This document shows positions 40,017-46,963 of a stretch of 64,000 nucleotides of DNA, in pieces (positions within the stretch are counted from its first letter, which is position 1; the number at the start of each line of letters is the position of its first letter). Below the pieces are notes generated by a model. The model had not been told where the DNA came from, did no database searches, and saw only the letters and a program-made list of their open reading frames with translations. Both the position numbers and the translations under genes were made by a program. The DNA lies in NCBI GenBank assembly GCA_013334825.1, contig JAAXWR010000001.1, positions 203,769-267,768 on the forward strand. The letters are read 5' to 3'. The DNA comes from Candidatus Yonathbacteria bacterium. Lineage in GTDB: Bacteria > Patescibacteriota > Minisyncoccia > Phycocordibacterales > JACNGX01.

Positions 40017-40043
40017 GGCGCCGGTTTCCCCGGCGCTTTTTTT
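40017..40043 (+). terminator. intrinsic terminator
   Basis: ggcgccggtttccccggcgcttttttt. Confidence 0.7.
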
Positions 40044-40278
40044 ATGCGTATTTCGCCCCCAAAACCCGTCTCGTAGGACTGAAGCGAAGGCTTCAAGAAC
40101 CATTGATTCGAATTAAGAATCAAGAATCATGAATTAAGAATGATGAAGTAAGGATGAGACGACGGCATCATGTGTTCATGGCTATAAGTATTTTGTTTGT
40201 ACGTATACTATTTTTATGCCCTTGTGGATACGCTTGTTTGATCCCAAGCCCTCATACTGTTAGAATGACTATATTAGG

Positions 40279-41268
40279 TTGTCTACTTTTTGTCTTATGA
40301 CTTTTACACAAAGAATGGAAAAAATACAAAAAGATTTCAATGTCAATGCAATTTATGCAAAGAATATTGTTTTGCGTATACAAGAGAAAAATGAGGAAAA
40401 TTTTTGGAAGCAAGTGAATATTGCAATAATGCAAAAGCCAAAACCGTTTGTAAAATGGGTTGGTGGGAAACGTCAACTACTTAAACAATTTCGAGATATG
40501 GGCCTGTACCCTCCCGTTGAGTTTAATCCCGAGAAGAACAGATATTTTGAACCTTTTGTTGGAGGTGGTGCAGTTTTTTTTGATTTATTGCCACAAAAAG
40601 CATTTCTTTCTGACATGAACAGTGAACTCATTACAACATATAACGTTATAAAGAATGATGTTGAAAAACTTATTATGTCTCTCAAGAAACATAAACATGA
40701 AAAAGAATATTATTATTCAATACGTGAGAAGGATCCTAGTACAATGACCGATGTGGCAGTCGCTTCAAGATTTATTTATCTAAATAGAACTGGATTTAAT
40801 GGAATGTATCGCGTGAATAAGTCTGGGAAATACAATGTTCCTTTTGGGAAAAACAAGAACCCACTTATTTGTGATGAGACGAATCTAAGAAGAGTATCAG
40901 AAACATTGAAGCATGTGGAAATTGCAAGAGACGATTATAAAAATGTTTTGAAAAAAGCAAAAAAAGGAGATTTTATTTATTTTGATCCCCCATATCATCC
41001 AGTGAACAAAACCGCAGCTTTTACTTCGTATACCCCTGACGGTTTTAGGGAAAAAGAACAAATCGAGTTGAGAGATACTTTTTTGAAACTTCACAAAAGA
41101 GGCTGTTTTGTTATGCTTTCAAACTCAGACGCACCGTTTATTAACAAGATATATTCTGAGGTAAAGAATGATGGAATAGCGATTCATAAAGTTCAAGCAG
41201 GAAGGGCTATTAATTCAAAAGGGAACAGACGAGGAAAGATTTTTGAGGTTTTAATTACTAATTATTAA
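40279..41268 (+). CDS. Dam-family DNA N6-adenine methyltransferase, DpnM/M.MboIA-like (GATC-type)
   Basis: KPFVKWVGGKRQLL, YFEPFVGGGAVFFDL, YLNRTGFNGMYRVN, FIYFDPPYHP motifs. Closely resembles S. pneumoniae DpnM by recall. Start may be at M-51 (40429). Low GC. Confidence 0.85.
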   Translation: MSTFCLMTFTQRMEKIQKDFNVNAIYAKNIVLRIQEKNEENFWKQVNIAIMQKPKPFVKWVGGKRQLLKQFRDMGLYPPVEFNPEKNRYFEPFVGGGAVFFDLLPQKAFLSDMNSELITTYNVIKNDVEKLIMSLKKHKHEKEYYYSIREKDPSTMTDVAVASRFIYLNRTGFNGMYRVNKSGKYNVPFGKNKNPLICDETNLRRVSETLKHVEIARDDYKNVLKKAKKGDFIYFDPPYHPVNKTAAFTSYTPDGFREKEQIELRDTFLKLHKRGCFVMLSNSDAPFINKIYSEVKNDGIAIHKVQAGRAINSKGNRRGKIFEVLITNY

Positions 41269-41281
41269 TCATCTAAAAATC

Positions 41282-43015
41282 ATGAATAATATAAAAAAAT
41301 TTATAGATACAAATCCCTACACGTATTCAACCCTTTGTGATAGATACAAAAGATTTTCTATGCCATTAAACCAGCGCCCTTACGCTTGGAAAATTTCAAA
41401 CATTTCCGAACTATGGAGTGCCATTCTTGAAAACGAAGAAGGTTATTTTGTAGGAAATCTCGTATGTCTAGATCCTTCCGATGAGAGTAATGGTACCCTG
41501 GTTGTTGTAGATGGCCAACAAAGGTTAACAACCATATCGCTTATACTTATTGCCATTAAAGATATTCTTATCGAATGCAATGATGGGACTAAAAAAACAA
41601 CCCAACTTATAAATTGGTTAACTAACAGTTTACTTTGGCAAGATCCCAAGACATACGAATATTTTCCAAGATTGATCCACAGTAAAGAAAATTTGCTTGA
41701 GGCGTATAAAAATATCTTAGAAAATGGAAACGAAATTCCAAAAAATATTGACGATAATCAAATGCGTTATTATTCGAATATTAGATATATAAAATCTCTC
41801 ATAAAGAAAGAAATTAAAGCAAAATCTGATGATCAGATTGAAAAGCTTATACAAAAGATTTTATCCCTACAGTTTATAGCGATTGTGGTAAATTCAGAAA
41901 ATGATATTTACGATTTGTTTGAAGGTTTAAACTCAACAGGGTTAGGTCTTTCCGTTGCTGATCTGTTAAAGAATTCAGTTCTAAAATTTGCCCGAAAAGG
42001 AAGAGCAAGAGAAGAAATAGAGGCGGATTGGATCCAAATGGAGTCATATTTTGAAGCAACAAAAACATCCCTGTTCCCTAAATTCCTAAGACATTACTAT
42101 ATTTCTGAGAATGGTCTTATTTCTTCTTCTCGACTTTTTAAAACTCTAAAGAAAGAAAAAATTGAGAATAAACAAACTCAAGAAGTTGTTGCGTTTGTGA
42201 AAGAGCTGTTGGAGAATGCGCAGATATATATGGGGTTAAGATTTGATGAATATGAAAGCAATCTTAACCTACTTGTTCGCGATAGGGAGAGTAAAAAGAT
42301 AATTAGAACTTTTGAATATGTAGGAAGTGTTGATCAAGTTTATGCGGTGTTGTTGGCTTTTTATAACAAAAAAAGGCATGACCCTGATTATAAACCGAGC
42401 TCTTTTAAGCGAGACATTCGTCAACTCCTTAAATTTGTTATATTGGCAAGATTTGTAAGTATCAACCCTTCGGAGTATGAAAAAATATTTGGTGATATGT
42501 GCGAAATATCCACAGAATATTCAGGGGTAAAATATGAAAAAGAGATAGGACAACATTTTAAGAAATTGTTTAATTTAGTTAATAAAAAAGATGAATTTGT
42601 GAGTAATTTCTCAAACGAAATAGAATATGGAAGAGATTCAAAACTCATAGAATATCTTTTGCAAGAAGTGATGCGAGAATATTCAAAAGAAGATCGCGGA
42701 ATAACAGTATTGAACCCAAATATCGAGCATATTTTACCAAGATCTCCAAAAAAATGGGGATTGGATAAAGAAGATATAGGTTCTTATGTTAATAAAATAG
42801 GCAATCTCACAATTCTTCATGATCTAGACAATAATGATGCCGGGAATGAAACTTTTGAAGAAAAGATGAAGAAAGTTTATTCTGTTTCGAAATTTAGATT
42901 TAATAATGATATAAGTAAATATGAAGAAGTTTTTGTCGAGAATCCTTCACTGGCAATTGAACAGAGAGGGAAAGATATTTCCACTTTTGTTTTTAGTTTT
43001 TTAAAGTCAATCTAG
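41282..43015 (+). CDS. GmrSD-family protein: N-terminal DUF262 (ParB-like, DGQQR) + C-terminal DUF1524 (His-Me/HNH-like) domains
   Basis: VVVDGQQRLTTISLIL near the N-terminus; NIEHILPRSP...IGNLTILHDLDNN near the C-terminus. 577 aa. Confidence 0.75.
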   Translation: MNNIKKFIDTNPYTYSTLCDRYKRFSMPLNQRPYAWKISNISELWSAILENEEGYFVGNLVCLDPSDESNGTLVVVDGQQRLTTISLILIAIKDILIECNDGTKKTTQLINWLTNSLLWQDPKTYEYFPRLIHSKENLLEAYKNILENGNEIPKNIDDNQMRYYSNIRYIKSLIKKEIKAKSDDQIEKLIQKILSLQFIAIVVNSENDIYDLFEGLNSTGLGLSVADLLKNSVLKFARKGRAREEIEADWIQMESYFEATKTSLFPKFLRHYYISENGLISSSRLFKTLKKEKIENKQTQEVVAFVKELLENAQIYMGLRFDEYESNLNLLVRDRESKKIIRTFEYVGSVDQVYAVLLAFYNKKRHDPDYKPSSFKRDIRQLLKFVILARFVSINPSEYEKIFGDMCEISTEYSGVKYEKEIGQHFKKLFNLVNKKDEFVSNFSNEIEYGRDSKLIEYLLQEVMREYSKEDRGITVLNPNIEHILPRSPKKWGLDKEDIGSYVNKIGNLTILHDLDNNDAGNETFEEKMKKVYSVSKFRFNNDISKYEEVFVENPSLAIEQRGKDISTFVFSFLKSI

Positions 43016-43058
43016 TTCCTGGTTCTCAAATTTATTAACAACATATCACATTAACTCT

Positions 43059-43925
43059 ATGGAAAATAGTAAGTTTTTAGTCTTTAAAAATACACGAAAA
43101 AACTCAATAAAGACTTGGGAGTATTTTGTGAATTGGGATAAGGTATTCAAGAATAAGAGAGAAGTGGAAATAGCTCTTAATAAAATGAATTATCTTCTCG
43201 GAAAAGAAAATTTAAAAGAAGAGTTTTTCTTATTATTGAAATCAGAACCAGATATTATAAAAACTTTCCCCATTCTTTTGGCGGTAAGAGAGCAAAAATT
43301 AGAGATTTATGATAAAAAAGAAAAGACATCGAGGTTTTTTGATTTTTCTAGTATTGATAATATGGAAGATCCAGAAGAATATTTTGAATTTTTTGAAAAT
43401 ACCGGTCTTACCAATATTTTTAAAAAAGATGGTGTAAAAAACCTTGTCGATTATGTTATGGGCGTAGAAGTTGGTCTTGAAAGTAATGGGAGAAAAAATC
43501 GAGGAGGTCAACTCATGGAGGTGATAACTGAAGAGTATATAAAGCAGTATTCAGAAGCAAATCATTTTTCTTATTTAGCACAAGCCACTGCGAAAGGTAT
43601 TTATGAAAGATGGGGTATAAATATTTCTGTAGATAAGTCAGAAAGAAGTTTTGATTTTGCTGTATATAATCCATTAAAAAATAAAATAAAATTGTTCGAA
43701 GTAAACTTTTATAATGGAGGAGGTTCAAAATTAAAAGCGGTTTGTGGAGAATTTAAAGGTCTTTTTGATTATCTAAAAGCACAAGGTGTTGAATTTGTTT
43801 GGATTACTGACGGTATGGGTTGGAATAATACGACAAGACCCCTTGAGGAGGTATATAACCATAACGATAATATCTTCAATCTATCAATGCTCGAAGAAGG
43901 GGTCCTCAACTCTCTTAAATGGTAG
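43059..43925 (+). CDS. type II restriction endonuclease, DpnII/MboI family (GATC)
   Basis: 288 aa, same length as R.DpnII. Motifs NLVDYVMGVEVGLESNGRKNRGG, EVNFYNGGGSKL, FVWITDGMGW match R.DpnII by recall. Confidence 0.75.
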   Translation: MENSKFLVFKNTRKNSIKTWEYFVNWDKVFKNKREVEIALNKMNYLLGKENLKEEFFLLLKSEPDIIKTFPILLAVREQKLEIYDKKEKTSRFFDFSSIDNMEDPEEYFEFFENTGLTNIFKKDGVKNLVDYVMGVEVGLESNGRKNRGGQLMEVITEEYIKQYSEANHFSYLAQATAKGIYERWGINISVDKSERSFDFAVYNPLKNKIKLFEVNFYNGGGSKLKAVCGEFKGLFDYLKAQGVEFVWITDGMGWNNTTRPLEEVYNHNDNIFNLSMLEEGVLNSLKW

Positions 43926-43937
43926 TATATTTTTTGT

Positions 43938-44690
43938 ATGAAATTTGGTCCAGACACATTTGATTTAGAATGTACAACCGTATGGGCTTTTCCTCGACGT
44001 GGTAATTGGGCTACACATACGTCAGATTGGCGTGGGAATTGGTCTCCTGAAGTGGTGCGCAATCTCATTTTACGATATTCCGAAGAGGGAGATATTTTAC
44101 TCGATCCAATGATTGGTGGGGGAACAACAGCAATCGAAGCAAAGATTTTGAATAGAAACATTATTTGTTCAGATGTGAATGATATCGCTATTGAACGGAC
44201 GAAGAATTGTCTTGTGTTTGATGTAGAGAATAATTCTTGGCAAAAGGTCTTGAAAAGAGACGCTAGAGATCTTAATAAAGCAAAAAATGAGAGTGTTGAT
44301 TTTATTCTCACTCATCCTCCATATGCCGATATTATAAAATATAGCGATGGTAAGATAGAAGAAGATCTTTCAAATATTCATAATATAGATTCCTTCGTCG
44401 ATGAAATGGAAAAAGTGGCAACGGAGCTTCATAGGGTTTTGAAGAAAGACAAATACTGCGCAATTTTAATCGGAGATACTCGTAGAAATAAAATGTATCA
44501 GCCTTTAGCTTTTAAGGTAATGGATAGATTTTTGAAAACAGGTTTTCAATTGAAAGAAGATATTATCAAACGACAATTTAATTGTCAGGCGACAGGTTTT
44601 TGGGTGAATAAATCAAAAGAAAATAATTTTCTCCTTATTATGCACGAACATCTCTTTGTGTTTCAAAAAGTTGGTGGAGACGCTCATTGA
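43938..44690 (+). CDS. second DNA methyltransferase (N6-adenine/N4-cytosine, ParB-like methylase family) of the R-M operon
   Basis: AdoMet motif I LDPMIGGGTTAIEA and motif IV ILTHPPYADI. Its last 7 codons and stop lie inside repeat copy 1. Confidence 0.75.
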   Translation: MKFGPDTFDLECTTVWAFPRRGNWATHTSDWRGNWSPEVVRNLILRYSEEGDILLDPMIGGGTTAIEAKILNRNIICSDVNDIAIERTKNCLVFDVENNSWQKVLKRDARDLNKAKNESVDFILTHPPYADIIKYSDGKIEEDLSNIHNIDSFVDEMEKVATELHRVLKKDKYCAILIGDTRRNKMYQPLAFKVMDRFLKTGFQLKEDIIKRQFNCQATGFWVNKSKENNFLLIMHEHLFVFQKVGGDAH

Positions 44691-44835
44691 CGACGAGTTT
44701 TTCTGGAATGAAGACACGGGGCACTATGAGCCGAATGATTTTACGGATTGCTTTGAGCATACCGGCAACGTGAGGTGCGCGCAGTGCGGGGAAGCGTGGA
44801 CCGGATTGTAGAGCAAACAAAAAAGCGCCGTCTAG
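44669..44835 (+). repeat. Zn-ribbon-encoding repeat, copy 1 (fused to methylase 3' end; no own start codon)
   Basis: ~95% identical to copy 3. Encodes ...LVETLIDDEFFWNEDTGHYEPNDFTDCFEHTGNVRCAQCGEAWTGL* (frame 44671..44811), then hairpin aaaaaagcgccgtctaggcgcttt. Confidence 0.8.
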
Positions 44836-44850
44836 GCGCTTTCGGCTCCT
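44826..44850. terminator. bidirectional hairpin terminator between convergent genes
   Basis: aaaaagcgccgtctaggcgctttcgg, with a T-run on the minus strand. Confidence 0.5.
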
Positions 44851-45230
44851 TAAGGTTTTTTTTCGTTGCAGAGAACACCATTAAGAATGGTGAAACCGAG
44901 AGCTTGACGAATCATGTCGTAATGTTTTGGAGTCGCTATTATTTTGTAGTACAGAGGTTCCCCTTCATAGAGGTTGTTGGGGGTGGCATTGTAGACAGAC
45001 ACCAACTGGGGGAACGGACAATGGGTCCCAGTTATTTTAAGTACAAGCTTACTCAGATCAAAACGTTCAATGATCTCAGCGCATCCTTTACTTGAATCTT
45101 CTTTGAGATATTCAACAGTGTTCCCTTCTCGTCTAATAGAGGTGATGATTGTGGTATATTTTTCGATCAACGCCTCAGGATGTTCCTTGTTTTCCATTGT
45201 GGTATGTTTTTTTGTTTCTTGACTCTGCAT
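44850..45230 (-). CDS. hypothetical small protein, paralog family A (C-terminal ...YY.I..P....M......GFT motif)
   Basis: C-terminus EPLYYKIIATPKHYDMIRQALGFTIL aligns with the 46634..46963 and 49479..49760 products. Confidence 0.4.
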   Translation of the reverse strand: MQSQETKKHTTMENKEHPEALIEKYTTIITSIRREGNTVEYLKEDSSKGCAEIIERFDLSKLVLKITGTHCPFPQLVSVYNATPNNLYEGEPLYYKIIATPKHYDMIRQALGFTILNGVLCNEKKP

Positions 45231-45337
45231 ACTTCTCTTGCGATATAGTATGCTTTTGGTCCAACTGTGTCAACAGAGTACGTAAAGTGAGAGTTCTTTA
45301 TTGGTTGGATTGTCGAACAAAAGGAAATCGTCGTGTG

Positions 45338-45378
45338 CGTAGAGCCCCGCACATCTGTCAGATGTGCGGGGCTCTACG
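45338..45378. promoter_or_regulatory. perfect 20-bp inverted repeat (41-bp palindrome) overlapping the ATG of repeat copy 2
   Basis: cgtagagccccgcacatctg t cagatgtgcggggctctacg. Confidence 0.6.
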
Positions 45379-45523
45379 CAAGTTGGTGGAGACGCTCATT
45401 GACGACGAGTTTTTCTGGAATGAAGAGACTGGGCATTATGAACCGAACAAGTTTACGGATTGTTTTGAGCATACTGGCAACGTGAGGTGCACGCAGTGCG
45501 GGGAAGCGTGGACAGGCGCTTGA
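45362..45523 (+). CDS. small Zn-ribbon protein (repeat copy 2), possibly decaying
   Basis: MCGALRKLVETLIDDEFFWNEETGHYEPNKFTDCFEHTGNVRCTQCGEAWTGA. Differences from copies 1 and 3 are mostly synonymous. The longer in-frame 124-aa ORF from 45149 overlaps the upstream minus gene and looks non-protein-like. Confidence 0.3.
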   Translation: MCGALRKLVETLIDDEFFWNEETGHYEPNKFTDCFEHTGNVRCTQCGEAWTGA

Positions 45524-45667
45524 AAAGGAGTCTGCAGAAGAGTTGAAATCTCTCGAAAAGTCCTTGTGTGTCTCGGATGTTGACATATATTATTTTTTAT
45601 GCTACTCTAAAACGAGTAAAAGGAAATTACAGTTTTCATTAATATTCGAATCATTCAAGGAGGCAAC

Positions 45668-45871
45668 ATGGCCACTATTAAAGAGGGAAGTCCGGTATGG
45701 GTGGACGCCAATGGCGTCTGTCACCTGCTTACTTGTGATCACATTAAATCACCTGCCGTTCATGGGTTGGCAGGCGAGAACAGGGACGCCCTATTCTGCC
45801 CTGTTTGTATGGAGGGATACCGCACAATTCCCGATTTCCCGTATGATGAAAGCCAAGAGATTTCAGTGTGA
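45668..45871 (+). CDS. small Cys-rich protein (67 aa), candidate zinc-binding
   Basis: SD aaggagg 6 nt upstream. CHLLTCDH...CPVC. Possible promoter ttgaca-17-tactct at 45578-45606. Confidence 0.45.
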   Translation: MATIKEGSPVWVDANGVCHLLTCDHIKSPAVHGLAGENRDALFCPVCMEGYRTIPDFPYDESQEISV

Positions 45872-46007
45872 AGTCCGCTTTATTCCTCGATGAGGCGATT
45901 CTGTGGGCATTTGCAACGGGTTTGTAAAACCCAGCTTTTCGTGGTCTTGAGAAGGAAAAGAAAGAGATATATCTTAAGTCCACGATCAGGGCTCTTTTCC
46001 CCGGTAT

Positions 46008-46224
46008 CGTGTTTGATTCATTCGTCGAATTTGGACAATTTCTGGAGGCTTTTCTCAAACCCGCCCTCATGGAGGCTTTTCCACATTTCAAGCATGGTCC
46101 TGTCGGAAGTAAAATACTTTCCGAAGAAATGCTTAAGGTCCTTGCACTTCTCGAAACGAACGGTCGGGAATGGAAAGACAATGTAGAGTGGAGGAGGAAG
46201 TTCTCTCAACTGCTGACCCATTGA
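46008..46224 (+). CDS. possible small protein (GTG start), weak
   Basis: 71 aa, helical-looking. No SD. Followed by terminator 46245-46278. Confidence 0.2.
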
Positions 46225-46244
46225 TTGTTTTCGTGTGATGTGAA

Positions 46245-46278
46245 AAACAACCCGCTGCTTGTATAGAGCGGGTTTTTT
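46245..46278 (+). terminator. intrinsic terminator
   Basis: aaacaacccgctgcttgtatagagcgggtttttt. Confidence 0.65.
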
Positions 46279-46454
46279 GTATCGAGAGTTATTTTTCGGA
46301 GATAAAACGACATGTAATTAACATCAATGGGTATTTAGTGCCGGATAGTGTGTTTCAAGAATAGGCACTCATCAAATAGAATAAGAAATCAGTCGAACTT
46401 TATGAGTAAAAGATCAAAGAAAGACATGCCTGCCAACTCTGCGGGGCCGAGCGC

Positions 46455-46640
46455 AAGTTGGTGGAGACGCTCATTGAGGACGAGTTTTTCTGGAATGAAG
46501 ACACGGGGCACTATGAGCCGAATAAGTTTACGGATTGTTTTGAGCATACCGGCAATGTGTGGTGCGCGCAGTGCGGGGAAGCGTGGACCGGATTGTAGAG
46601 CAAACAAAAAAGCGCCCTGCGGGGCGCTTTTGATTACGAG
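46455..46640 (+). pseudogene. Zn-ribbon repeat copy 3; the reading frame has a stop just upstream and no start codon (upstream ATG at 46400 is in another frame)
   Basis: (taa)KIKERHACQLCGAERKLVETLIEDEFFWNEDTGHYEPNKFTDCFEHTGNVWCAQCGEAWTGL*, then terminator aaaagcgccctgcggggcgctttt. Confidence 0.5.
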
Positions 46641-46963
46641 GGAGTTTCAGCCCCTTTTTTATTTTCTTCATCCCCACTGGTCTTTACAGACACATCTGTA
46701 AAGCCGAATACGCTGAGAAGTTTCTCCATGTGCTCTTTGTCGGGGCAGGTGATTGAGTAATATTCAATCTGCCTGTCTTCTTTCTCAGAGACATGAATAT
46801 CGATATAATTCATCGTCTGATCTTTACCTACGCATAGGAATATTTTGTGAAATTCTTGTGGTCTGATGACCACCACCTTTCCAAACTCTATGACGATGAT
46901 TGCCAGAGAGCCGTCGGGAAGGACTTTCACATGTTTGAAATGTCCTGAGATGTCTTTTTTCAT
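46634..46963 (-). CDS. hypothetical small protein, paralog family A
   Basis: 109 aa. ...IEYYSITCPDKEHMEKLLSVFGFTDV motif. Convergent with repeat copy 3 and shares its terminator. Confidence 0.45.
   Translation of the reverse strand: MKKDISGHFKHVKVLPDGSLAIIVIEFGKVVVIRPQEFHKIFLCVGKDQTMNYIDIHVSEKEDRQIEYYSITCPDKEHMEKLLSVFGFTDVSVKTSGDEENKKGAETPS

Follow-up and report, generated by a model that had tools for sequence, protein, structure and literature searches.

A predicted GmrSD-family nuclease embedded in a horizontally acquired GATC restriction–modification cassette of Candidatus Yonathbacteria

A four-gene cassette with an extra gene

Why does a GATC-type restriction–modification (R-M) cassette carry a gene for a second, unrelated kind of nuclease between its first methylase gene and its endonuclease gene? 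The question arises from a window of 64,000 nucleotides (the whole stretch of DNA analysed) from Candidatus Yonathbacteria, in which four low-GC genes were confirmed as co-oriented, tightly spaced open reading frames in the order M1-G-R-M2 (40279–44690), with intergenic gaps of 13, 43 and 12 nt.

40297–41268, + strand: M1, Dam-family N6-adenine DNA methyltransferase, 323 aa (PF02086, 8.5e-61; TIGR00571 'dam', 291 bits, cut-off 115)
41282–43015, + strand: G, 577-aa GmrSD_N + GmrSD_C protein (PF03235 GmrSD_N, 5.7e-34; PF07510 GmrSD_C, 6.5e-19)
43059–43925, + strand: R, DpnII-family type II restriction endonuclease, 288 aa (PF04556, 2.2e-89; PADLOC REase_II, 6.6e-92)
43938–44690, + strand: M2, N6/N4 DNA methyltransferase, 250 aa (PF01555, 1e-24 in two stretches; PADLOC MTase_II PDLC03376, 2.3e-89)

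These profile matches to M1, G and R support the original prediction of a Dam and DpnII cassette in which a DUF262/DUF1524 gene separates M1 from R, and the motifs that it quoted (KWVGGKR, DPPY, DGQQR, EHILPRS and GNLTIL) are all present in the translations. The maximal M1 reading frame opens at TTG 40279. The true start is most likely ATG 40297, which is favoured because the N-terminal extension of approximately 45 aa aligns with homologues; this extension is conserved among CPR cassettes and is absent from the plasmid cassettes of the DpnII/MboI/LlaDCHI group.

M1 and R are 45% and 43% identical, respectively, to the first methylase and the endonuclease of pSRQ700 (LlaDCHI), and the presence of a second methylase in a compact, co-oriented operon is a further likeness to the two-methylase GATC type II cassettes. 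Homology shows M1 and R to be a GATC restriction–modification pair, in which M1 is predicted to methylate adenine and R to cut unmethylated GATC; for these two proteins, and even more so for M2, specificity for GATC is assigned from homology and context. The second methylase proved to be a methylase, but not one of the DpnA/LlaDCHIB type. That assignment was rejected, as the match with the LlaDCHI M2 is permuted and limited to 60 aa; motif I precedes motif IV, and M2 belongs to a permuted N6/N4 family.

The spacing of the four genes is compatible with one transcription unit, as had been proposed, and a terminator scan detected no terminator-like site within the M1–M2 gene run. The sites at its borders are as follows.

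40017–40037, + strand: terminator-like hairpin closing the upstream host gene (39187/39283–40005), with an 8-pair stem, 7 G-C pairs and a T run
40238–40266, + strand: candidate operon promoter, TTGATC-17 nt-TAGAAT with a TG extension (weak; consensus scan only)
44821–44843, strand unassigned: GC-rich palindromic hairpin flanked on either side by A/T runs (hairpin scan, reported on the − strand, and sequence reading)

The promoter-like site, 5′ of M1, has a GATC at 40240 inside its first hexamer. The hairpin at 44821–44843 lies just 3′ of the cassette and of a truncated host gene described below, and is a likely terminator of operon read-through.

The cassette lies on an acquired island

The GC content is 0.31–0.35 over 40–44 kb and 0.44–0.49 in the flanks, which encode ribosomal proteins S4, L17, L13 and S9, RpoA, GrpE and DnaK.

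40100–44667, no strand: low-GC acquired island (left edge approximate; right edge mapped to 44667/44668)
44668–44811, + strand: 5′-truncated copy 1 of a host Zn-ribbon mini-gene family, the right-junction remnant (repeat alignment, translations)

Homology with the host paralogues begins at 44668, which places the right edge of the island. The Zn-ribbon repeat (162 nt) is present in three copies, of which the fuller two end at 45523 and 46598; copy 1 lacks the first CxxC knuckle, the island edge having replaced the 5′ part of this host gene. The final 23 nt of M2 (44668–44690) are consequently host-derived and encode its last six codons and stop (VGGDAH*). On the left, the hairpin at 40017–40037 marks the last clearly host sequence, and a search for homology at that junction found none. 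The observed/expected ratio of GATC is 1.08 inside the island and 0.46 outside it. Low GC, the truncation of a host gene where the island ends on the right, and a GATC depletion confined to host DNA agree that the block is a foreign, horizontally acquired island in this tiny-genome CPR bacterium, as the original prediction held from GC content.

G belongs to the HEC-06/DndI-like branch

G combines a DUF262 domain (ParB-like NTPase, D77-G-Q-Q-R81) with a DUF1524 domain (His-Me/HNH; E482-H483, N508 and N517). These motifs are invariant across 35 homologues that are 33–63% identical to the window protein, and invariance at such divergence points to purifying selection at each of the two catalytic sites. 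PADLOC matched G best, and over its full length, to HEC-06 (1e-75), followed by Orf5 (2e-65). HEC-06, the Hma-embedded candidate 06, provides defence on its own in E. coli K-12, and its defence is abolished by mutating motif residues (Payne et al. 2024 preprint); the G motifs occupy the equivalent positions, with DGQQR and EH nearly coincident. Both are single co-oriented genes embedded in a methylase-containing defence system. The system around HEC-06 is Hma, whereas G, the activity of which is predicted, lies in a type II GATC cassette.

The closest solved structure is DndI of IscS-DndBCDE-DndI (PDB 9JFL). It ranks first in a Foldseek search (8e-15) with the AF2 model of G (pLDDT 90.5), and matches the A2 profile over its full length in a search of PDB sequences (1.2e-36), ahead of SspE-type chains (approximately 1e-15 to 3e-19). 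BrxU, the solved enzyme for modified DNA, is much more distant (Foldseek 4e-6, TM 0.35; profile 5e-5). From these comparisons G is identified as an intact NTPase and His-Me nuclease that falls, within the GmrSD family, in the HEC-06/DndI-like branch, and is far better matched to a validated stand-alone defence gene (HEC-06) and a modification-gated nickase (DndI) than to BrxU.

Variable interiors between conserved methylase genes

Among 80 CPR DpnII loci surveyed (77 evaluable), 58 are compact M1-R-M2 cassettes, the gene order of MboI. The absence of an insert from canonical cassettes, as originally stated, thus holds for these 58 of the 77 evaluable loci and for plasmid cassettes (pSRQ700 (LlaDCHI), Staphylococcus, Levilactobacillus and Psychrobacter). 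The insertion of G at the M1|R junction is not a one-off: a GmrSD-family gene occupies this junction in 8/80 loci (approximately 10%), and other cargo does so in 7/80 (OLD-like, AIPR, DndB-like and unknowns), including autonomous-type defence genes (OLD/AriA-like, AIPR/AbiU-like). Approximately one-fifth of CPR cassettes have an extra defence gene here, most commonly of the GmrSD family. Recruitment to the junction also occurred independently in two more GmrSD lineages (L026/L079 and L040).

G and its relatives form a clade (neighbour-joining bootstrap 189/200), a small subfamily that in the sampled cases is always beside GATC-type methylase genes: 17/17 members have a linked methylase of the Dam or DpnA type, in five or more arrangements, compared with 0/79 metagenome outgroup relatives found in such a cassette. 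The adjoining endonuclease belongs to one of five mutually unrelated families, and one locus has none. In the same frame, R is MutH-like (L003), DpnII (L005, with an Mrr gene appended), PDDEXK_11 (L007 and L009), R204 (L011) or R432 (L013). In CPR cassettes the two methylase genes are conserved 'bookends' around a variable interior, with the endonuclease as the swapped part. A comparable exchange of non-homologous GATC restriction gene sets at a fixed locus is known from a review of DpnI/DpnII/DpnIII in Streptococcus pneumoniae; the conserved flanks in CPR are, however, the methylase genes themselves, and the exchange spans phyla and involves additional defence genes. In a tree of M1 and M2, cassettes with a GmrSD-family gene are intermixed with compact ones, and G shows no co-variation with either methylase.

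A layered defence operon and its alternatives

Our leading explanation, to which we give roughly even credence, is a horizontally acquired, layered defence operon in which G is an autonomous, co-transcribed second nuclease. G would be co-transferred with the R-M genes and would act as a second line, as shown experimentally for HEC-06, attacking DNA that escapes GATC restriction and leaving the host's own G6mATC DNA unharmed. Its substrate would most plausibly bear non-host base modifications. The explanation is favoured by the invariant catalytic motifs and their equivalence to essential HEC-06 residues, by the single-gene function of HEC-06, by the operon layout and island status, by the exchangeable R, the appended Mrr and the diverse cargo at one junction, and by the interleaved methylase tree. 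It also has precedent in the GmrSD-like genes inside or beside methylase-based defence systems, namely BrxU in BREX, GmrSD/Eco94GmrSD and RloF in Campylobacter type I hsd loci, which have been interpreted as covering modified DNA missed by the main system, and in those of Hma. Those in type I R-M or BREX belong to families not tied to one modification specificity. Against it, the linkage of the G clade, kept in several arrangements, is tighter than expected of an autonomous hotspot hitch-hiker, and this clade, unlike HEC-06, is exclusively GATC-methylase-linked. In L182 a member of the clade is paired with Dam alone, an endonuclease gene being absent. DndI, the nearest of the characterised proteins in both sequence and fold, is moreover gated by the modification of its own host.

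The claim of a composite locus with a modification-dependent or NTP-sensing nuclease stands as to the composite cassette; modification dependence is putative, and the proximity of G to DndI and HEC-06 rather than BrxU makes a methylation-gated role a live alternative. G might be a second restriction effector of the DndI/SspE kind, a nickase attacking DNA without the host mark, its NTPase domain sensing G6mATC made by M1 and M2 so that G spares self DNA or is switched. One modification module would then serve two unrelated effectors, as DndBCDE does with DndFGH and DndI. We regard this as the main rival, possible but less likely than the leading explanation. DndI and SspE share the DUF262 NTPase and DUF1524 nickase layout, are tied genetically to a DNA-modification module and are co-transcribed with another restriction module, DndI being toxic without modification. 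Moreover, because the methylase classes (Dam and DpnA-type, which are unrelated) and the endonucleases vary, the constant partner of G is the predicted modification rather than one protein. The L182 pair and the linkage maintained across arrangements also favour this reading. However, the cassette has adenine methylases in place of dnd or ssp phosphorothioation genes, and the phosphorothioate-sensing Y25 of DndI aligns with N30 in the window's G and with F in the second tier; gating by host modification is putative here. G is also dispensable, being split (probably a pseudogene) in the otherwise intact L087 and absent from approximately 80% of cassettes; unrelated autonomous genes and other GmrSD lineages share its junction, the endonuclease-less pair was found once only, and an N6-methyladenine-sensing DUF262 protein was not met in the literature covered, which included no dedicated search. 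HEC-06, to which G is related just as closely, gives protection in the absence of its native methylase system. Its host was E. coli K-12 with restriction systems deleted, which we expect (the paper does not say so) to be still Dam-positive, and the experiment would thus be compatible with gating by GATC methylation.

It is improbable that G is a PrrC-like guard, inactive while touching R-M proteins and released when phage anti-restriction inhibits them. PrrC is the textbook gene embedded almost exclusively in, and functionally coupled to, an R-M locus, and the exclusive linkage of the G clade resembles this pattern; but the partners vary (endonucleases of five families or none, methylases of either type), which makes a conserved protein–protein contact across the clade unlikely, and G carries an NTPase sensor domain of its own, a feature typical of DNA-sensing relatives. 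Least credible of all, and by a long way short of probable, is a cassette regulator or inactive remnant: DUF262 proteins such as DndB, a regulator, lack a nuclease domain, and a DndB/DpdB-like DGQHR protein occupies the same junction in L086, but G is full-length, confidently modelled and invariant at both catalytic sites.

The survey of embedded genes by Payne et al. (2024) was confined to Hma, BREX, DISARM and type I R-M. As a layered defence operon, the cassette would be the type II counterpart of the known embedding of such genes in type I R-M, BREX and Hma.

Organization of the cassette

The cassette comprises four co-oriented open reading frames, designated M1, G, R and M2, with intergenic gaps of 13, 43 and 12 nt.

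40279/40297–41268, + strand: M1, Dam-family methylase
41282–43015, + strand: G, 577 aa, GmrSD family
43059–43925, + strand: R, 288 aa, DpnII endonuclease
43938–44690, + strand: M2, 250 aa, N6/N4 methylase

A promoter-like site is located at 40238–40266 and a palindromic hairpin at 44821–44843; no terminator-like site was seen inside the cassette. Profile searches bear out the assignments of all four proteins. M1 belongs to the Dam family (PF02086, 8.5e-61; TIGR00571 'dam', 291 bits against a cut-off of 114.85). G combines an N-terminal GmrSD_N domain (DUF262; PF03235, 5.7e-34, residues 17–233) with a C-terminal GmrSD_C domain (DUF1524 His-Me/HNH; PF07510, 6.5e-19, residues 435–549). R covers profile positions 2–277 of 278 of DpnII (PF04556, 2.2e-89), and M2 matches PF01555 (1e-24) and the PADLOC model MTase_II (2.3e-89). 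The Dam-family M1 and DpnII-family R predict a cassette of the GATC type, and reading frames and profiles agree with the proposed placement of a DUF262/DUF1524 gene between M1 and R in such a tightly spaced, co-oriented unit.

M1 possesses an N-terminal extension of approximately 45 residues (40297–40430) that is conserved in 74 M1 proteins of Patescibacteria (CPR). This conservation rules out the ATG at 40429 as the start, a candidate suggested by the Dam domain, which begins at about residue 51. The extension comes in two flavours (...INxIYA... and ...VHPIHxRVFMSN...) among the M1 genes of the homologous loci L003–L095, is not present in the M1 enzymes of Lactococcus, Staphylococcus and Psychrobacter plasmids, and may be a DNA-binding or autoregulatory module.

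M1 and R are 45% and 43% identical to the Dam-type methylase and the endonuclease of pSRQ700, which we take to be the LlaDCHI plasmid. M2, in contrast, shares only a permuted stretch of approximately 60 residues with DpnA/LlaDCHIB, and a DpnA-like assignment was ruled out by blastp. In M2, motif I (FxGxG-like) precedes motif IV (PPY) and an RlmK/L-like UPF0020 profile is matched, the family differing from that of DpnA. True DpnA/LlaDCHIB orthologues (53–54% identity) are the single beta-class methylases of loci L014 and L177.

Island boundaries and host DNA

The host is a Candidatus Yonathbacteria (CPR/Parcubacteria) metagenome-assembled genome, and the locus is also present in two Logan assemblies; the sequencing runs SRR11449211 and SRR11449212 contain this contig. 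GC content is 0.31–0.35 over 40–44 kb, against 0.44–0.49 in the flanks, which carry a ribosomal-protein/rpoA cluster on one side and grpE–dnaK on the other. A 162-nt repeat lies 3′ of M2 in three copies, each encoding a Zn-ribbon mini-protein of approximately 50 residues (CxxC...CxxC), of which copy 1 lacks the first CxxC knuckle. Copy 1 matches copies 2 and 3 from precisely 44668 on, and M2 has its final six codons and stop codon inside this host-derived sequence; the island therefore took the place of a host gene's 5′ part.

Neither a remnant of the disrupted Zn-ribbon gene at the left junction nor direct repeats flanking the island were found, and no mobility gene occurs among the flanking reading frames scanned. 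The window contains no tRNA gene or Rfam family; a tRNA-type integration site and a riboswitch are therefore absent. The Zn-ribbon paralogues span 44668–46616, and a GC-rich hairpin comes after copy 1 and another after copy 3, none being found after copy 2. The copies alternate with small reading frames without a Pfam match (44850–45230, − strand; 45668–45871, + strand; 46634–46963, − strand).

GATC occurs 105 times in host DNA (window 1–64000 outside 40100–44700) against 227 expected (ratio 0.46), whereas in the island it is not depleted (16 observed, 14.9 expected). This pattern fits a lineage long exposed to GATC restriction and a foreign origin of the cassette. The low ratio in host DNA also lends indirect support to the predicted G6mATC methylation of that DNA and cleavage of unmethylated GATC. 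The GC drop, the junction in the Zn-ribbon gene and the GATC contrast between host and island together bear out the proposal of a low-GC, horizontally acquired island. GGCC, CTAG and CCGG are likewise under-represented in host DNA outside the island (observed/expected 0.29, 0.56 and 0.60), a hint that further kinds of restriction may have acted on the lineage.

The embedded GmrSD-family protein

The DGQQR motif of G (D77-G-Q-Q-R81) and its His-Me motif EHxxP...N...N (E482, H483, P486, N508 and N517) do not vary across 35 homologues. The best PADLOC models, both full-length, are HEC-06 (1e-75) and 'Orf5' (2e-65). The HEC-06 profile PDLC04154 aligns positions 5–544 of 569 with G residues 6–550 (1e-75), and PDLC04157 scores 1.7e-75. 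HEC-06 (Hma-embedded candidate 06; Payne et al. 2024 preprint) is a GmrSD-like gene embedded in Hma systems that alone protects E. coli; activity of the HEC-06 representative needs the DGQQR and EH residues, and the equivalent residues are present in G.

The confident AlphaFold2 model of G, built from the alignment of its clade (pLDDT 90.5, pTM 0.78), has DndI as its closest solved structure (Foldseek E 7.7e-15, TM 0.47–0.51 with PDB entry 9JFL), whereas BrxU, the solved modified-DNA enzyme, is only distantly similar (E 4e-6, TM 0.35). Sequence profiles rank DndI first (1.2e-36, full-length, positions 10–546 against 9JFL residues 8–571), followed by SspE-type chains (approximately 1e-15 to 3e-19) and BrxU (5e-5). 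DndI is a nickase, transcribed together with dndFGH, that restricts DNA without phosphorothioate (PT); its ATPase is stimulated by PT on self DNA, from which DndI is thereby released, and without the modification it is toxic. G differs from DndI and SspE in the lack of dnd/ssp genes in its cassette and in the PT-sensing residue Y25, which is not conserved and aligns with N30 in G and its closest tier of homologues and with F in the second tier. No dnd or ssp genes lie near G, whose neighbours are M1, R and M2 only, and none were found in all 17 loci of the clade by HMM annotation and precomputed Pfam calls. There is good support for reading the locus as an acquired, single-operon GATC restriction–modification (R-M) cassette in which a nuclease of the HEC-06/DndI type, with its catalytic motifs intact, is embedded.

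Cargo at the M1–R junction

Scanning of species-representative genomes with a DpnII alignment, and annotation with custom HMMs for each cassette component, gave 80 loci, almost all from CPR bacteria. Compact M1-R(-M2) cassettes account for 58 of these. The survey had been proposed as a search for embedded DUF262 genes, and eight loci indeed carry a GmrSD-family gene between M1 and R; the rest have other cargo at this junction (seven), combine DpnII with a DpnA-type methylase (four) or were not evaluable (three). Canonical cassettes had been described as free of inserts, and those of cultured bacteria (pSRQ700 and the Staphylococcus, Levilactobacillus and Psychrobacter plasmids) are, with a compact M1-M2-R or M-R layout. 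The other junction cargo includes unknowns and the following genes.

L021:5194–6972: OLD/AriA-like ATPase-Toprim
L034:5367–6977 and L080:5255–6967: AIPR/AbiU-like
L086:5510–6974: DndB/DpdB-like DGQHR protein with a small membrane protein

Defence genes of various kinds use the M1–R junction as a docking site. In two loci DpnII is followed by further endonuclease sequences, namely two fragments of a 204-aa REase family, together with a DpnA-type methylase gene (L085:8027–9243), or a 269-aa DUF6997 gene of a 432-aa REase family and then M2 (L094:7875–8684). These remnants or second copies look like fossils of R-gene replacement.

Exchange of the endonuclease

The homologues of G examined at 57–61% identity (P0003, P0007, P0010 and P0011) lie in unrelated neighbourhoods, always within an M1-G-[R]-M2 frame. 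The R slot holds a MutH/Sau3AI-like gene in L003, DpnII in L005 and, in both L007 and L009, a PDDEXK_11 protein of 180 aa. At 38–41% identity, P0027 retains the frame with a 204-aa REase_II family member, P0025 occurs as M1-R-M2-G (R of 432 aa, DUF6996/6997/7226), and P0016 comes last in the order M-R-G (M of DpnA type, R of PDDEXK_11). At 33–39% identity, G lies beside a divergent DpnII gene and a DpnA-type methylase (L096), is divergent from an M1-R-M cassette with a DpnA-type M (L176), comes last in an M-R-G order with a DpnA-type M and a PDDEXK_11 R (L177), or precedes a Dam methylase by 14 nt (L182:2136–4779). The absence of an endonuclease in L177 was ruled out by a 139-aa PDDEXK_11 gene between M and G. 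No endonuclease gene was found near L182, the Dam of which lacks the N-terminal extension, and this locus could be a two-gene methylase-plus-nuclease system. At approximately 29% identity the gene stands alone (P0094).

A type IV Mrr-type gene lies directly 3′ of M2 in the M1-G-DpnII-M2 cassette of L005 (9400–10299), giving three nuclease genes for one methylase pair. In L087 (1547–3168), the embedded GmrSD gene is split into two reading frames, and is probably a pseudogene, with M1, DpnII and M2 intact; the cassette can therefore do without the extra gene.

Conserved bookends and a shuffled interior

In a distance tree of 94 GmrSD-family proteins (200 neighbour-joining (NJ) bootstrap replicates), G falls in a 17-member clade recovered in 189/200 replicates, with 0/77 outgroup sequences inside. 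All 17 members show linkage to a methylase of the Dam or DpnA type. Twelve were recovered by way of the G protein rather than DpnII, and for these the linkage is 12/12, against 0/79 in the metagenome outgroup (Fisher p = 3e-15). Two further embedded GmrSD lineages (L026/L079 and L040) lie outside the clade, and GmrSD genes have therefore entered the junction on more than one occasion.

M1 and M2 are 58–87% identical across cassettes whose G proteins are 25–68% identical, and GmrSD-bearing and compact cassettes are interleaved in the M1+M2 tree. The methylases are thus conserved bookends around a shuffled interior. Among L003–L095, the M2 genes are 72–87% identical across cassettes. Co-evolution of G with M1 and M2 was ruled out by disagreeing groupings and unlike identity ranges; as the predicted GATC specificity is constant, this result does not separate the competing readings of G. 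That the window cassette is one instance of a modular family widespread in CPR bacteria is well supported.

A profile search of 1.84 billion representatives returned 31,251 superfamily hits at E <= 1e-3 and only a few dozen 50%-identity clusters at clade-level score. Scans of metagenomes and viral contigs with the clade alignment gave almost only relatives of 21–33% identity, which served as outgroup, and L096 as the sole new clade context. Distant GmrSD relatives from IMG/VR (L184–L186, L190, L232, L241–L245, L252, L255 and L258; 23–27% identity) lie on viral or prophage contigs, and a Dam-like methylase gene recurs 4–5 kb upstream of them on the same strand.

Hma, BREX, DISARM and type I R-M systems are already documented as harbouring additional, embedded defence genes, and GmrSD-like genes are embedded in methylase-based systems as RloF (type I loci), BrxU (BREX) and HEC-05/06 (Hma). 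In the part of the literature covered, a scope outside which REBASE lies, no account was found of genes embedded in type II GATC cassettes, of the CPR layout of bookends and variable interior, or of a GmrSD subfamily that occurs only in the neighbourhood of GATC methylases.

Role of the embedded nuclease

There is about an even chance that G acts as an autonomous second-line nuclease, co-regulated and co-transferred with the R-M genes. This reading is favoured because HEC-06 is autonomous, because unrelated defence genes of autonomous type and other GmrSD lineages share the M1–R junction, because an Mrr gene is appended to one cassette, and because G is dispensable, being absent in approximately 80% of cassettes and a probable pseudogene in L087.

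The main alternative, which we consider less likely, is a second restriction effector: GATC methylation would gate G in the way that PT gates DndI. Across the clade, the one partner that stays the same is the predicted GATC modification; two unrelated classes of methylase provide it, next to any of five endonuclease families or to none, and the methylase linkage survives several rearrangements. The closest characterized relative is DndI. The host in which HEC-06 was tested would be expected to be Dam-positive (our expectation, not a statement of that paper), which would make the experiment non-discriminating. A PrrC-like guard is unlikely, as it would depend on one conserved contact with proteins that differ from locus to locus, and so is a purely regulatory role, which clashes with the invariant catalytic motifs.

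It is doubtful, yet conceivable, that the embedded clade represents the first methylation-gated DUF262-DUF1524 effector, a DndI-like nickase for which N6-methyladenine at GATC, in place of phosphorothioate, would be the self mark. If so, the CPR cassettes would be R-M systems with two unrelated effectors and one shared modification, and a pair of G and Dam such as that of L182 would by itself make up a new type of R-M system, complete with two genes.

The autonomous and the methylation-gated readings concern a type of GATC cassette found very commonly among CPR bacteria, with methylase bookends, any of five unrelated endonuclease families in the interior and an extra defence gene in approximately 20% of cases. 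The layout is a simple route by which small-genome bacteria stack and exchange immunity. The tie of the clade to GATC-type methylases in all sampled members, and its similarity above all to the modification-gated nickase DndI, raise the question of whether adenine methylation can gate a DUF262-DUF1524 nuclease as phosphorothioation does. The answer is of relevance to the design of genetic tools for CPR/Patescibacteria and would affect the reading of thousands of unannotated 'DUF262 domain-containing proteins' adjoining methylases.
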